From Alphaproteobacteria bacterium (GTDB lineage Bacteria; Pseudomonadota; Alphaproteobacteria; Rickettsiales; UBA998): 64,000 bases of DNA. The notes beneath the pieces are model-generated. The model was given only the letters and a program-made list of their open reading frames with translations, was not told where the DNA came from and made no database searches. Positions 4,879 to 63,200 of this stretch are shown here, one piece after another; positions within the stretch are counted from its first letter, which is position 1; each line of letters begins with the position of its first letter. Where the stretch lies: the NCBI GenBank assembly GCA_043765375.1, contig JAYUJH010000028.1, positions 12,332-76,331 of the forward strand. The letters run 5' to 3'. A program made the position numbers and the translations under genes.

Positions 4879-5916
4879 ATGAAAAAACATGCAGTGGCAA
4901 TTTTAGGGGCGAGCGGTTATACTGGTGCAGAACTGATACGTTCATTATTATGTCACCCAAATATTGAGATAAAATCACTCGCCGCATATAGCCAAGCAGG
5001 GCTTGCGATGGAGCAAATATTCCCGCATTTAGCATACGCTATTTTGCCTCAAGTTACCCATATTGATGCGGTTAATTATGATGAGATTGAGTTAGTATTT
5101 TGTTGTTTGCCTCATGCGGCTTCACAAAAAATCATAGCTAATTTGCCAAAACATTTGCGTATCATTGATTTATCGGCGGATTTCCGCTTGCGTGACATTG
5201 CCGAATATGAGAAATATTATGGCGCAACTCACCAAGCAACCGAATTGCAAGATATCGCTGTTTATGGTTTAAGCGAGCATTATCGTACAGAAATTGCTGA
5301 TGCGAAATTGGTAGCCAACCCCGGTTGTTACCCCACTTGCACGCTTTTGCCTCTAATTCCATTATTGCAGGCGGGCGTGATTGCCCCGCAAAACATTATT
5401 ATTGATGCGAAATCAGGAGTTAGTGGCGCAGGGCGTAGTGTTTCACAGCATTTGCTTTTCAATGAAGTAGCAGAGGGTATGAGCGCATATGCGGTTAATA
5501 ATCATCGTCATATTGGTGAATTGCAGCAAGAAATTAATCATTTTAATGCAACCCAAATCCCGATAACATTTGTGCCGCATTTAATTCCGATGCGCAGGGG
5601 CATGATGGTGACTAGTTATGCGCAGCTAAAGCCTGAATATAGCATAGCCGAGGCAAGAAATATCTTACAAAATGCTTACCAAAACGAGCAATTTGTGCAT
5701 ATTTTGCCTGAAAATATCATGCCATCAACGCATCATGTGCGTGGTTCAAACCATTGTTGCATCAATATTATGCAGGGGGGCGATAATCAAATTATTTTAA
5801 TTTCGGTGATTGATAATTTGCAAAAAGGGTCATCAGGGCAGGCGGTGCAGAATATGAATATCATGTTGAAATTGCCTGAAAATAATGGGTTGCAACAAAC
5901 TGCGTTGTTTCCATAG
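4879..5916 (+). CDS. argC: N-acetyl-gamma-glutamyl-phosphate reductase
   Basis: 345 aa. Has ILGASGYTGAEL Rossmann N-terminus, active-site region NPGCYPT, and DNLxKGSSGQAVQNMN near the C-terminus. Confidence 0.9.
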   Translation: MKKHAVAILGASGYTGAELIRSLLCHPNIEIKSLAAYSQAGLAMEQIFPHLAYAILPQVTHIDAVNYDEIELVFCCLPHAASQKIIANLPKHLRIIDLSADFRLRDIAEYEKYYGATHQATELQDIAVYGLSEHYRTEIADAKLVANPGCYPTCTLLPLIPLLQAGVIAPQNIIIDAKSGVSGAGRSVSQHLLFNEVAEGMSAYAVNNHRHIGELQQEINHFNATQIPITFVPHLIPMRRGMMVTSYAQLKPEYSIAEARNILQNAYQNEQFVHILPENIMPSTHHVRGSNHCCINIMQGGDNQIILISVIDNLQKGSSGQAVQNMNIMLKLPENNGLQQTALFP

Positions 5917-14110: not shown

Positions 14111-14159
14111 TGTCGTGGTGGTGTTGTTATTAATATATTTTATCCAGTAGCACCATATT

Positions 14160-14180
14160 ATAGTTAAAGGCTGGTATCCA
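14160..14180. repeat. Half-copy of the dispersed repeat (atagttaaaggctggtatcca); left direct repeat flanking the small TM gene
   Basis: 19/21 identical to 14745..14765 in the same orientation. Shares the aggctggtatccata core with 36047..36074. Confidence 0.6.
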
Positions 14181-14202
14181 TAACTACGTAGCGATAACAA
14201 CA

Positions 14203-14246
14203 AAAAAAATACGCCCCTAAATCAACCTTGTGGTTGAATCTAGGGA
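14203..14246 (-). terminator. Rho-independent terminator for the small membrane-protein gene
   Basis: The minus strand reads ccctagattcaacc-acaa-ggttgatttaggg, then gcgta and T8. Confidence 0.7.
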
Positions 14247-14284
14247 CGGATTTTTAGTTCAGACTAAAGAAAATAATCTATTTT

Positions 14285-14542
14285 CTAGATGTTATTCTTT
14301 TTGATGGGTGGTGCTGTAACTGATGCTTTCGCAACGGCTTGTTCAGACAGGAGCAAGCCAACTACCGTAGCAATCCAGCTTCCAGCATATGCACCGACTG
14401 CTGCTGCGCCTGCTTGCTTTTTGAAAATCTCAAAGCGGATAGCGCGAACCGTAAGAAAAACAGATAGCACTGAACCGACAAAGAAAAACAAAAATGTGAG
14501 CGTAGCAATGGCGGTTAATCCGACGATTTGTAAAGTGGTCAT
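14285..14542 (-). CDS. Small two-TM membrane protein (85 aa), unknown function, under the poly-G spacer promoter
   Basis: GGAGG SD lies 5 nt before the ATG. Two hydrophobic helices (IVGLTAIATLTFLFFFVGSVLSVFL and a Gly/Ala-zipper-like AAAVGAYAGSWIATVVGLLL). Has its own promoter and terminator, and is GC-richer than its surroundings. Confidence 0.65.
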   Translation of the reverse strand: MTTLQIVGLTAIATLTFLFFFVGSVLSVFLTVRAIRFEIFKKQAGAAAVGAYAGSWIATVVGLLLSEQAVAKASVTAPPIKKNNI

Positions 14543-14658
14543 GGTGGCCTCCGTAGGGGGCTTAAAGAATATTTCCCCATCAACATTTTTTAATATGTTG
14601 ACGAGTAGACAATGATGGAGTGTTTGAAAAAAACACTTTACTCAATTGTTATAATCCT

Positions 14659-14686
14659 ATTTTACCCCCCCCCCCCCAGATGTCAA
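14659..14686 (-). promoter_or_regulatory. Sigma70-type promoter TTGACA-N16-TAAAAT whose spacer contains a G13 homopolymer (C13 on the plus strand, 14665..14677)
   Basis: The minus strand reads cTTGACAtct-GGGGGGGGGGGGG-TAAAATa, about 115 nt upstream of ATG 14542. Same module as at 36896..36923. Confidence 0.7.
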
Positions 14687-14744
14687 GTTAATTTACATTA
14701 AGATTATGTTGCGGTTGTGTGTGTAATTTAAGTGTTCTTATTTC

Positions 14745-14765
14745 ATAGTCAAAGGCTAGTATCCA
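14745..14765. repeat. Half-copy of the dispersed repeat (atagtcaaaggctagtatcca); right direct repeat flanking the small TM gene
   Basis: 19/21 identical to 14160..14180. Confidence 0.6.
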
Positions 14766-14867
14766 CCAGTTGATTTCACGAAACACAAAACATTATTTTG
14801 CTTGATTTAACCCCCGTTATTTCAATTAATACTTTACTTGCGCAATATTATGTTATTAATATAGCGC

Positions 14868-34061: not shown

Positions 34062-35906
34062 ATGAATAATTTTACACAATTTAACTTGCCAGAATCATTG
34101 CAGCAATCATTGCAGCGCATCGGTTTTGATGAGCCAACCCCAATTCAATTGCAATCAATTCCACTTGCACTTGAAGGGCGTGATATTCTCGGTTCAGCGC
34201 AAACTGGAACAGGTAAAACTGGTGCATTTGGGATTCCATTAATTGCCAAATTGCTTGAAAATCCTCGTGGAGTGGCACTAGTGCTAACGCCAACTCGTGA
34301 GCTTGCAACCCAAGTTTTGAAAGCGTTGGAATCTATGATTAGCAAAGCGGATAAAATTAACACAGCGTTGTTGATTGGTGGTGACCCGATGCCAAAACAA
34401 TTGCAACAATTGCGTATGCGTCCACGTTTGATTGTTGGAACTCCGGGGCGGATTAATGATCATCTTGAGCGTGGTAGCTTAATGTTGCATGATGCAGGGT
34501 TTTTGGTGCTTGATGAAACTGATAGAATGCTTGATATGGGCTTTAGTATTCAAATTGATAACATCTTAAAGTTTTTGCCGAAAAAACGCCAAACATTGCT
34601 ATTTTCCGCAACTTTGCCGCATAATATTGTGAGCATGGCGAGCCGTTATATGACCAACCCTGAGCGTGTTTCTGCGGGTAGCCAATCTGCACCAGCAGCG
34701 AACATTAAGCATGAGATTTTGCATGTGTCAGAAGGTGAAAAATATGATACATTATTGGAGCAGTTAAAAGAGCGCACAGGTTCAGTGATTGTGTTTGTGA
34801 AAACCAAATGGAATGCAGAGAAAATGGCAGAGCGTTTGCGTCGTGATTTTCATGAAGCTGATGCAATTCATGGTGATTTGCGCCAAAATAAGCGTGACAA
34901 AGTGATTGCTAACTTCAGAGCGAAGAAATATCGTATTTTAGTAGCAACTGATATCGCTGCTCGTGGTTTGGATATTCCGCATATTGAGCATGTGATTAAC
35001 TTTGATTTGCCACAATGCGCTGAGGATTATATCCACAGAATTGGGCGCACAGCCCGTGCAGGAGCAGAAGGTTCAGCGATATGCTTTATTAGCCGTGAAG
35101 ATAAAGGTAAATGGTCAGCGATTAACCGCTTGTTAGATCCGAATGCACCAGTAGAAAAACGTGAAGCTGGTAATGGTGGCGGCAGAGCTGGCGCAGGACG
35201 CAATGGCAGTGGTGCTAGAGCTGGTGGTGGCGGTTATGGCGGCGGAGGAGCAAGACGCCCCAATTCTGGAGGTGGTGCTGATTGGAAAAGCGATTTCAAA
35301 AAACGTGAAGATGGCTTTAATAATCGTGATGGTGGCAGCCGTGACAGCGCACCAAGGCGTGAAGGTGGTTTCAGAAGTGAAGGTGCTAGAAATGAAGGTT
35401 CAGGTTTCAGGAGCGAACGTCCAGCGGGCGAACGCACTCAGAGAGATCGCAGTGATCGCCCAACGGGTGAACGCAGTTATGGCGAGCGTCCAGCTTTTGA
35501 AGCACGAGCATTTGATGCTAGAACGGATACAAGAGGTGCTGATACACGCAGTTCTGAAGCAAGAGGAGCACGCCGACCAGCTGAAAACTCATCAGAAAGA
35601 AGTGGTTCAGAGAGAACTGCCCCGAGAACAGATGGTTTCAAAGCTGGTGGGTTCAAAGCAAAAGCTCCGTTTAAGTCATCACAAGAAGGTGGTTTCAAGC
35701 GTGATGGTGTAGCTAGAGATGGCGCATCATCAAGGGACGGCGCAGCTAGAGATAGTGTAGCCAGAGATAGTGTAGTTAGAGATGGCGCACCAAGACCTGT
35801 TCGCAATAAATCAAGTGACGGCGCAGCTAGTGGAAGCAGAGATAATGTAGCCAGAGATGGCGCAGCTCCAGCATCACGCAAGCCATATCAACGTCGTACT
35901 GCATAA
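34062..35906 (+). CDS. DEAD-box ATP-dependent RNA helicase (RhlE-like) with ~230-aa Arg/Gly/Asp/Ser-rich repetitive C-terminal tail
   Basis: Has Q-motif F..PTPIQ, AQTGTGKT, PTRELA, DETD (DEAD-box variant LVLDETDRMLDMGF), SAT and HRIGRTARAG. Tail from ~aa 365. Confidence 0.93.
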   Translation: MNNFTQFNLPESLQQSLQRIGFDEPTPIQLQSIPLALEGRDILGSAQTGTGKTGAFGIPLIAKLLENPRGVALVLTPTRELATQVLKALESMISKADKINTALLIGGDPMPKQLQQLRMRPRLIVGTPGRINDHLERGSLMLHDAGFLVLDETDRMLDMGFSIQIDNILKFLPKKRQTLLFSATLPHNIVSMASRYMTNPERVSAGSQSAPAANIKHEILHVSEGEKYDTLLEQLKERTGSVIVFVKTKWNAEKMAERLRRDFHEADAIHGDLRQNKRDKVIANFRAKKYRILVATDIAARGLDIPHIEHVINFDLPQCAEDYIHRIGRTARAGAEGSAICFISREDKGKWSAINRLLDPNAPVEKREAGNGGGRAGAGRNGSGARAGGGGYGGGGARRPNSGGGADWKSDFKKREDGFNNRDGGSRDSAPRREGGFRSEGARNEGSGFRSERPAGERTQRDRSDRPTGERSYGERPAFEARAFDARTDTRGADTRSSEARGARRPAENSSERSGSERTAPRTDGFKAGGFKAKAPFKSSQEGGFKRDGVARDGASSRDGAARDSVARDSVVRDGAPRPVRNKSSDGAASGSRDNVARDGAAPASRKPYQRRTA

Positions 35907-36895: not shown

Positions 36896-36923
36896 TTGAC
36901 ATTCTCGGGGGGGGGGGTAAAAT
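36896..36923 (+). promoter_or_regulatory. Sigma70-type promoter TTGACA-N16-TAAAAT whose spacer contains a G11 homopolymer (36907..36917)
   Basis: The plus strand reads cTTGACAttctc-GGGGGGGGGGG-TAAAATa, 78 nt upstream of ATG 37001. Same module as at 14659..14686. Confidence 0.7.
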
Positions 36924-37000
36924 AATTAATGAATATAGTCTTGTCATGCGCATTTGATACGTGTGAAACTATTAAGTTGTCGTTTATGTAATGTAAAAAA

Positions 37001-37498
37001 ATGACCATTATAACACTTGAGCAAACTCTACCCGTATTGGCTTCATTAAGCCAATCGGAGCTAAGAAATTTGTCTCAATTAAAAGCCTTGGAGTTGTTAT
37101 TTGGGTTTTCTAGTGAGATTGATCAATTTGGTATCGCTAAAAAAGCCGAAAACCTTGTAGCAATGCGAGAAATATGGTTAGGAAAGTCGGATAACTTTTT
37201 TGGCTATGAAGTTAGTGTCAAAGGCGAAAACCTACAATTAATTGTAGGTTTTATGGCACAAGAGTTCAGAAAAGGAAAGACTGCTGATTTCTATCGTGTT
37301 GATAGAAAAATATGTGCAATGTGTTATAAGGACATTTTCGCGGAATTGCCAAGGGTTTGGCAAAAAGCGGCTAATCGCCTTATGCCAATGTCAGCCACAA
37401 TGGCAAAATCACATATTCAAAGGCAAGCTGAGGCAGAAATGCTTGAAGAACTTGTCAATAAAATTGGATTTGGCGAAGTTACCATCATAGTGCTTTAA
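37001..37498 (+). CDS. Hypothetical cytoplasmic protein (165 aa), no recognisable family, under the poly-G spacer promoter
   Basis: Clean ORF with its own promoter (36896..36923) and terminator (37528..37565). No TM segment or signal peptide seen. Confidence 0.55.
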   Translation: MTIITLEQTLPVLASLSQSELRNLSQLKALELLFGFSSEIDQFGIAKKAENLVAMREIWLGKSDNFFGYEVSVKGENLQLIVGFMAQEFRKGKTADFYRVDRKICAMCYKDIFAELPRVWQKAANRLMPMSATMAKSHIQRQAEAEMLEELVNKIGFGEVTIIVL

Positions 37499-37527: not shown

Positions 37528-37565
37528 TCCTCCTCTGCATTGCAATGCTTTGGAGGATTTTTTTA
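37528..37565 (+). terminator. Rho-independent terminator after ORF 37001..37498
   Basis: tcctcc...ggagga outer stem enclosing the perfect palindrome gcattgcaatgc, followed by a T-run. Confidence 0.6.
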
Positions 37566-37681: not shown

Positions 37682-38938
37682 TCACATTCCAATTTCGGCG
37701 AAAATCATTTGCAGTGCTTCCACCAATTCGTCCATCATTAGTTCGGTGTGCATTGGGGTTGGGGTCAGGCGCAAACGCTCAGCCCCTCGTGGGACTGTAG
37801 GATAATTAATCGGTTGCACATAAATCTGATGTTCGTCTCGCAGTTTGTCAGAAACTAGCTTGCATTTTATCGCATCATTAATCATCACGGGGATAATGTG
37901 CGTTGGTGTTGAGATGTGGTTAATGTTAGCTTTGGCAAGTTTTTGCTTTAATGTCTTCGCTGCTAGCTGATGAGATTCTCGCAATTCATTATGTTGCATT
38001 AAATAGCGCACGCTAGCATTTGCACCCGCTGCTTGCGCTGGTGGCATAGCAGTGGTAAAAATAAATGCGGGAGCATAAGATCGTATCGCATCAATAATTG
38101 CATTATTTGCGGCAATATATCCCCCCATAACGCCATATGCTTTTCCAAGTGTCCCTTGAATAATATCCACATTATTCATTAGCCCTAATTTTTCAGCAAC
38201 TCCAGCCCCCCTCATACCATAAAGCCCAACTGCGTGAACTTCATCAAGGTAAGTTATCGCACCAAACTCTTGGGCGAGGGCGCAAATCCCAGCTATATCA
38301 CCAATATCGCCGTCCATAGAATAAACTGATTCAAATGCGATGATTTTTGGTGAATTAGGGGCGCAGGCGGCAAGCAATTCCCGCAAATGTTCAATATCAT
38401 TATGGCGAAATACGTGTTTTTGCAACCCGCTCGCCCGCACCCCTGCAATCATGGAGGCGTGGTTTTTAGCATCAGAAAATATCACTGCATTTGGGAGCAA
38501 TTTACCAAGCGTTGCAAGCGTTGTTTCATTGGCCACATAGCCAGAGGTGAAGGCGAGTGCCGCTTGTTTATGATGTAACTCGGCGAGAGTTTGTTCCAGC
38601 GTGATGATTGCTTGATGCGTTCCAGAGATGTTACGAGTTCCGCCAGCACCAGCACCCATTGCATCAATCGCTTCGTGCATGGAATCCAGCACTACCTCAT
38701 GATGCCCCATTCCGAGATAATCATTGCTGCACCAGATGGTTATGTCTTTGCCAGTAGTATGGCTTTTGGCAACGGGAAAGCTACCAACTACTCGCTCAAT
38801 ATGATGGAACTCACGATATCTACCTTCGCATTTCAAAATATTAACTGAATTGATGAATAATTGGTTATAATCAACTATGTTTGATTTTGCTATTTCGTGC
38901 AATTGTGGTTCACGAGTTTGTGATACATTGTTGTTCAT
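37682..38938 (-). CDS. hemA: 5-aminolevulinate synthase (start ambiguous; ORF is open up to 39064)
   Basis: Has [17 protein letters not shown], and PLP-lysine region GTLGKAYG. The conserved core starts at ...DYNQLF. ATG 38938 gives a normal length, while 39064 adds an Asn/Ile/Asp-rich extension. Confidence 0.92.
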
Positions 38939-39273
38939 CTGGATATTATGTTGATAAGCATCATTTATATGAATACTATTCTGATTGATTTTATTTACAT
39001 CAATATCATCTATATCAATATTATTTTTATTAACTAATAATTGTACTTTCATATAATAATACATAGCACAAATTGGTAATTAGTTCACATTAAAAATACC
39101 TAATAATACAGATAATGCAGAAAAATATTTCATAGTTATTGTTTGTAAAACTGATATTAACCTTACAAATAAATAATATCCCGCTTTTCGCATAATAATG
39201 CTTGCAAATTAACCAACTATTTTGCAATGTGTGAGTAGGTTATGGTTTGTTAAAATAAATTGAGAGAGTGAAT

Positions 39274-63118: not shown

Positions 63119-63140
63119 ATTATTTTAGGGTTTTATTTTA

Positions 63141-63200
63141 GGGTTTAGGGGTGAGGGTATAGGGGCTAGGGGCTAGATTTTTTCACTATACCCTAAACCC
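63141..63200. repeat. G-rich imperfect inverted repeat (gggtttagggg-tga-gggtatag ... ctataccctaaaccc) in the trmD upstream region
   Basis: Arms pair with a 4-nt bulge. The loop contains a taggggc tandem. The TTTAGGG/CCCTAAA motif also occurs at 17062 and 43577..43600. Confidence 0.6.

Follow-up and report, generated by a model that had tools for sequence, protein, structure and literature searches.

Prokaryotes make general use of homopolymeric tracts for regulation (PMC2831843), and in the described systems closest to the one considered here the tract lies in the promoter region. In porA of Neisseria meningitidis, a poly-G tract between the -35 and -10 hexamers sets their spacing and hence transcription; the poly-G tract of tp0126 of Treponema pallidum likewise lies between the two hexamers, and both promoters are most active at a spacing of 17 nt (PMC7864442). 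Poly-G tracts of Treponema vary in length within isolates, for example between 7 and 11 G at tprL (PMC7864442). In a second arrangement, that of fim2 and fim3 in Bordetella pertussis and of the poly-C tract of Neisseria opc, a promoter-region homopolymer also confers graded or on-off expression by slippage; in these promoters the homopolymer takes in or displaces the -35 region and works by positioning an activator (established knowledge and PMC7864442).

Here we describe two putative housekeeping-sigma (sigma-70 type) promoters, A and B, in each of which an uninterrupted G-run makes up nearly the whole of the -35/-10 spacer and stands flush to the -10 box. Both lie within a 64-kb stretch of DNA, hereafter the window, from an uncultured alphaproteobacterium. 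As in porA and tp0126, the two hexamers of a sigma-70-type promoter are separated by a G homopolymer, and the porA G-run abuts the -10 box too. Compared with porA, the hexamers are nearer to consensus, the tracts extend to 11-13 G and so exceed that of porA, and the assembled spacer measures 16 nt where that of porA has 17; the host is uncultured, the cargo consists of small proteins rather than a porin, and switching is putative. The tracts of tprE, tprG, tprJ and tprL sit just upstream of the start site, whereas those of the window fill the spacer; in Treponema the regulated genes encode outer-membrane proteins and length variation has been measured, whereas the promoters described here are known from assemblies. 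The initial annotation of promoter A had likened it to Bordetella fim and to Neisseria opc and porA. The porA analogy holds, and those to fim and opc apply only loosely because the canonical TTGACA -35 stands outside the tract here; at neither A nor B does the tract overlap or replace the -35 hexamer.

Organization of promoters A and B

The minus strand from 14686 to 14659 reads TTGACA-TCT-GGGGGGGGGGGGG-TAAAAT, that is, TTGACA-tct-G13-TAAAAT, exactly as first annotated, and the spacer is indeed 16 nt long with 13 of its positions supplied by the G13 run. Promoter B, on the plus strand at 36896..36923, reads TTGACA-TTCTC-GGGGGGGGGGG-TAAAAT, or TTGACA-ttctc-G11-TAAAAT. This second site had been called an almost identical module, a description that is accurate for the core hexamers and the G-run and fails for the remainder, since B lies on the plus strand, carries G11 and has unrelated flanks. 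Each promoter matches 11 of 12 consensus positions, in line with the near-consensus hexamers claimed at the outset. A and B each have their own orthologs, and they are independent, not copies of one repeat. The features of the two loci are as follows.

14687..14717, minus strand: conserved island CAACCGCAACATAATCTTAATGTAAATTAAC 5' of the promoter A -35, near-identical in the relatives L126, L127 and L128
14681..14686, minus strand: promoter A -35 hexamer TTGACA, read from the sequence
14665..14680, minus strand: promoter A spacer of 16 nt, TCT (14678..14680) plus G13 (14665..14677), abutting the -10 box
14659..14664, minus strand: promoter A -10 hexamer TAAAAT, read from the sequence
14543..14658, minus strand: predicted 5' leader of the 85-aa gene, 116 nt, from a putative start site
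14619..14637 and 14580..14601, minus strand: leader hairpins of the 85-aa gene (RNA folding, -28.7 kcal/mol for the leader)
14548..14552, minus strand: GGAGG Shine-Dalgarno sequence (SD) of the 85-aa gene, followed 5 nt later by the ATG
14285..14542, minus strand: open reading frame (ORF) of the 85-aa small membrane protein, the best frame by codon usage, with no known relatives
14202..14245, minus strand: terminator-like element of the 85-aa gene, a strong hairpin followed by T8, found by folding
36896..36901, plus strand: promoter B -35 hexamer TTGACA, identical in the relatives L140 and L136
36902..36917, plus strand: promoter B spacer of 16 nt, TTCTC plus G11 (36907..36917), abutting the -10 box
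36918..36923, plus strand: promoter B -10 hexamer TAAAAT (TAGAAT in L140)
36944..36966, plus strand: inverted repeat or hairpin TCATGCG-N9-CGTGTGA in the predicted leader, conserved in leaders of the 165-aa family
37001..37498, plus strand: ORF of the 165-aa all-helical protein, lacking an SD, from a tiny and fast-evolving family
37528..37564, plus strand: terminator-like hairpin with a T7 tail, 3' of the 165-aa gene (folding)

The two tracts stand out sharply from the rest of the window, whose GC content is 40.9%. No further G/C run there is as long as 8, the next longest being 7, and all 10 of the G8 windows observed fall inside the two tracts, compared with 0.43 expected. Promoters A and B are also the only matches in the window to TTGACA-N15-19-TANAAT; they belong to a set of nine sites in which 11 of the 12 consensus positions are matched, where block shuffles yield 2.7 such sites on average. 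A chance origin of the two sites is excluded.

Repeats of other kinds occur in the window as well. The ~240-aa C-terminal tail of a DEAD-box helicase (34062..35906, plus strand), rich in Arg, Gly and Ser, is encoded in part by 15-nt tandem repeats at 35703..35785, and an intergenic TTTAGGG array of four tandem units (76% matches) lies near the window end at 63137..63164. Apart from the two G tracts, the window showed no simple sequence repeat (SSR) locus of note. The 5-aminolevulinate synthase gene at 37682..39064 (minus strand) encodes an Asn-rich N-terminal extension of ~70 aa.

Genes downstream of the two promoters

Of all six reading frames, the 85-aa frame downstream of promoter A ranks first by codon usage, with a score of 0.27, where confident genes in the window have a mean of 0.33 (SD 0.06); the antisense 108-aa ORF, which one gene caller preferred over it, scores 0.09-0.16. 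Both the GGAGG SD and the gene's own terminator, in the form of a terminator-like hairpin, were present as annotated, the latter having been missed by a simple terminator scan. The view of the product as a two-transmembrane protein is secure for the first hydrophobic segment, which is clear (Kyte-Doolittle score 2.18), and less so for the second, which is marginal (1.61). The GC content of the gene had been considered higher than that of its surroundings, a contrast without meaning: the ORF is 45.7% GC and the flanking intergenic DNA 33-35%, yet the mean of coding DNA in the window is 43.5%, so that the difference is merely one of coding versus non-coding DNA. The elevated GC was likewise rejected as a sign of foreign origin, 45.7% being ordinary for coding DNA here. 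No homolog of the 85-aa protein emerged from 5.8 billion clusters in a word-seeded search, and neither it nor the 165-aa protein matched Pfam, NCBIfam or PADLOC. One of the contigs recovered for this locus, the Logan contig L124, starts at 14623, at the T7/A7 run of the first leader hairpin.

The 165-aa protein downstream of promoter B retrieved itself alone in a word-seeded search, and HMMER over 1.84 billion representatives brought its family to eight representatives in total. The seven relatives are distant, at 28-43% identity, and their alignment shows a conserved N-terminus. An AlphaFold (AF2) model built from the eight-sequence alignment is all-helical and confident (pLDDT 89, pTM 0.86); Foldseek against PDB and BFVD gave it no significant fold neighbour (none below E = 0.6), and a profile search of the cargo proteins against PDB sequences gave no match below E = 0.4. 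The confident fold and the conserved N-terminus together argue that this is a real gene. It also evolves very fast, since it is only 35-36% identical to its syntenic ortholog in L140 when the adjoining ceramidase-like proteins are 89% identical.

Members of the family lie at 37001..37498 (plus strand) in the window, at 1971..2510 in L140 and at 5001..5504 in L136. In the four homologous leaders compared, the inverted repeat follows the consensus TCATGCG-N9-11-CGYRTGA with all seven pairs kept (7/7), and the only changes across them are one-sided and of the G-U wobble type; the repeat at 36944..36966 may act as an RNA hairpin or as an operator, and its conservation lends indirect support to a putative transcription start a few bases past the -10 box of promoter B. 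Immediately beyond the 165-aa homolog, L136 and L138 carry a full-length MutS gene (L136, 5551..8436, minus strand; L138, 2236..5121, minus strand). L138 and the window organism were assembled from one sequencing run, and the homolog in L138 is a paralog within the window organism's genome or else belongs to a co-resident relative.

Conservation among relatives

Contigs of relatives were reached through homologs of two proteins, the BON protein adjacent to promoter A and the 165-aa protein, and the orthologs of promoter A are divergent from the BON gene. The block comprising BON, CoA-transferase A and B, and SerA is syntenic in relatives; a distant BON homolog, 57% identical, carries the NCBI label of an Alphaproteobacteria metagenome-assembled genome (MAG) and, together with the 5-aminolevulinate synthase gene, supports placing the window among the alphaproteobacteria. 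The promoters compare as follows, with the identity of the neighbouring BON protein given for promoter A.

Promoter A, window: TTGACA-tct-G13-TAAAAT, spacer 16 nt
Promoter A, L126/L127/L128 (BON 79%): TTGACT-tttGC-G9-TAAGCT, spacer 14 nt
Promoter A, L139 (BON 71%): TTGACA-ttaatta-GGGTGGGGGG-TATATT, a GGGT-G6 tract, spacer 17 nt
Promoter A, L130 (BON 68%): TTGATG-ttaatttGtttGttGtG-TATTCT, spacer 17 nt, the run decayed to G/T
Promoter A slot, L125 (GCA_043737595.1; BON 90%): a different promoter, no tract, and a HicA/HicB-like pair instead
Promoter B, window (after a ceramidase-like gene): TTGACA-ttctc-G11-TAAAAT, spacer 16 nt
Promoter B, L140 (GCA_043737595.1; syntenic ortholog after a ceramidase-like gene): TTGACA-ttctcGt-G9-TAGAAT, spacer 16 nt
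Promoter B, L136-L138 (homolog next to MutS): TTGACA-ttaac-G7aGG-TAAAAT, spacer 15 nt
Promoter B, L142 (more distant): no tract
Promoter B, L141: contig begins 16 nt past the expected tract, whose position falls outside the contig

Promoter A had been annotated as putative. At A, and likewise at B, the -35 hexamer, the G-rich spacer and the -10 hexamer have been retained at orthologous positions where the flanks have diverged. Since hexamers, spacing and G-rich spacer are kept while both flanks and cargo change, A and B are, as judged across these relatives, real promoters of the sigma-70 type. Tract lengths differ between species (13, 9 and 6 G at promoter A; 11, 9 and 7 at promoter B), and the longest uninterrupted tracts at both promoters are those of the window organism.

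Upstream of promoter A, alignment of the window with L126-L128 shows that ~30 nt 5' of the -35 are near-identical and that the remaining intergenic DNA is unalignable. The AT-rich CAACCGCAACATAATCTTAATGTAAATTAAC island in this position is a candidate that could represent an UP element or a regulator site. A CtrA box within the island was considered and rejected, the spacing of TTAA-N6-TTAA being wrong. A search of metagenomes with the conserved-island pattern returned four unrelated chance matches (L132-L135), all without a G-run, and a metagenome scan with a locus-specific pattern of variable gap returned no match.

The gene driven by promoter A differs between species: it encodes the 85-aa protein in the window, an unrelated 111-aa protein in L126, and homologous membrane proteins of 136 and 151 aa in L130 and L139, respectively. 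The promoters are older than the genes they drive. More broadly, the small gene occupying the slot divergent from BON (14111..14867 in the window) changes from relative to relative, and in L125 the slot contains a HicA/HicB-like toxin-antitoxin pair.

Within species, the comparison covers two sets of assemblies. G13 is found in all four assemblies of the window organism (L001, L002, L123 and L124), which are mutually 100% identical over 2.5-12.7 kb, so that this constancy is uninformative about strain variation. In one relative, both strains (L126/L127 versus L128, 99.7% identical) carry G9 at promoter A. The spacer of promoter B measures 16 nt in the window and in L140 alike, and the two spacers differ by a G-to-T substitution, with no indel, a constancy that looks like purifying selection for one fixed length. 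Contig breaks were also considered as signs of length heterogeneity and set aside as too weak: L141 breaks 16 nt past the tract and L124 42 nt from tract A, neither of them at a tract.

Occurrence in other bacteria

A generic scan with the pattern TTGACA-N0-8-G9-N0-8-TAAAAT, covering one genome per GTDB species, identified at least 120 stretches of the form TTGACA-N-G9+-TAAAAT in many phyla. Of 80 loci read among the matches listed, the G-run is flush to TAAAAT in 41, when ~11% would be expected for a uniform gap, and is followed by TA in 56. The matches listed also include modules present in several copies, as in Microcystis (G9, G11, G9), Ca. Caccopulliclostridium (G9, three times) and Bacilli MAGs from rabbit gut (G10, three times). 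These promoters of other uncultured bacteria occupy unrelated loci in other phyla, and, in comparison with the multi-copy modules, the window sites are not repeat copies. Literature searches found no experimental study of the listed poly-G-spacer promoters from other phyla, nor any description of the architecture for alphaproteobacteria. The novelty first claimed for the architecture was nonetheless overstated: porA and tp0126 already show this design (PMC7864442), and recurrence of the generic pattern in so many phyla means that it is not peculiar to the window organism.

A proposed mechanism and its alternatives

On balance, and with a slight preference over the alternatives taken together, we interpret A and B as contingency promoters of the porA and tp0126 type. 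Replication slippage within the runs of 11-13 G would generate a mixed population of cells with spacers of about 15, 16 or 17 nt, and the altered -35/-10 spacing would in turn give graded or on-off transcription of a small, lineage-specific gene, namely that for the 85-aa membrane protein at A and that for the 165-aa helical protein at B. The assembled state, with 16 nt at both promoters, is most likely an expressed one. Spacer-type SSR contingency promoters are recognized by a homopolymer of about 8 or more, and the tracts here are G13 and G11; at both sites the repeat lies between recognizable -35 and -10 hexamers whose spacing is set by its length. The cargo, too, is typical of contingency loci, being small, lineage-restricted and, in the case of promoter A, membrane-bound. 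Against contingency, none of the compared same-species assemblies or strains, which are clonal or 99.7% identical, differs in tract length; the unchanged 16 nt of promoter B in L140 and the decay of the run in L130 also count against it. If L138 shares the genome of the window organism, mismatch repair (MutS) is present and would damp slippage.

The strongest alternative, which we regard as possible though distinctly less probable, is that each promoter has one fixed setting, with the G-rich spacer a conserved cis-element and slippage an unselected by-product that selection continually returns to one length. Such an element could be a regulator site, or an A-form-like spacer whose stiffness determines promoter strength or which provides the G at position -14. 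Consistent with this, the G-rich spacer stands flush to the -10 box in at least three species per promoter, a layout enriched in unrelated phyla as well; two species share the 16-nt spacing of promoter B despite a substitution, and without an indel; and consensus length is invariant within species, across the four clonal assemblies and the two 99.7%-identical strains. Several observations weigh in the other direction. Spacers vary among relatives, at 14, 16 or 17 nt for A and 15 or 16 nt for B, which indicates that indels do occur within the tract or beside it. The promoter of L130 persists without its G-run, the 17-nt spacing having been kept as the tract decayed, so that the run is dispensable for the promoter; and besides the run itself no regulator or motif was found. 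To our knowledge, uninterrupted runs of 11-13 have proved mutable in every bacterium studied for it. A range of 7-11 G within Treponema isolates likewise speaks for mutability (PMC7864442).

A broader proposal goes beyond the contingency reading and is more doubtful: selection may have preserved the poly-G-spacer promoter over long periods as an "expression slot", and G-runs flush to the -10 box may form a widespread and so far uncatalogued class of tunable promoters in uncultured bacteria of several phyla. On this proposal, the lineage would retain one hypermutable promoter bordering the BON block and another behind the ceramidase-like gene, and the small gene driven by each would be replaced or would diverge extremely fast.

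We consider it unlikely that these are ordinary promoters whose G-runs grew non-adaptively by mutational drift, through slippage bias, under the weak selection expected of dispensable orphan cargo. The cargo genes are orphan or fast-evolving, as drift would have it, and the tract is decayed or absent in L130, L142 and L125. Yet each of the sole two long G-runs in 64 kb coincides precisely with a promoter spacer and abuts the -10 box, and the 165-aa family, with its confident fold and conserved N-terminus, represents a real gene. Tracts are common to species whose neighbouring proteins are 71-90% identical, which marks them as old, and by this comparison the G-run is not only old but maintained, because neutral drift and decay in a 41% GC genome would have disrupted it.

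The weakest alternative, a sequencing or assembly artefact such as the poly-G of two-colour Illumina chemistry, which does exist in such data and with which the end of related contig L141 16 nt from its expected tract would accord, is effectively refuted by the identical G13 in the interiors of 120-kb and 237-kb scaffolds (ENA assemblies from two BioSamples) and of a separate Logan contig of SRR14689464, by the perfect hexamers that frame both tracts at 16 nt, and by the orthologous tracts present in unrelated studies.

Biological significance

The practical value of these observations is modest: they supply a clear and cheaply testable case of a poly-G-spacer promoter, together with a search pattern that finds many analogous ones. 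If the tracts do slip, then promoter-spacer contingency loci would no longer be confined to a few host-adapted pathogens but would reach an alphaproteobacterial lineage that is uncultured and represented here by metagenome assemblies only, and the two small proteins would be flagged as products that are beneficial when expressed by part of the population.
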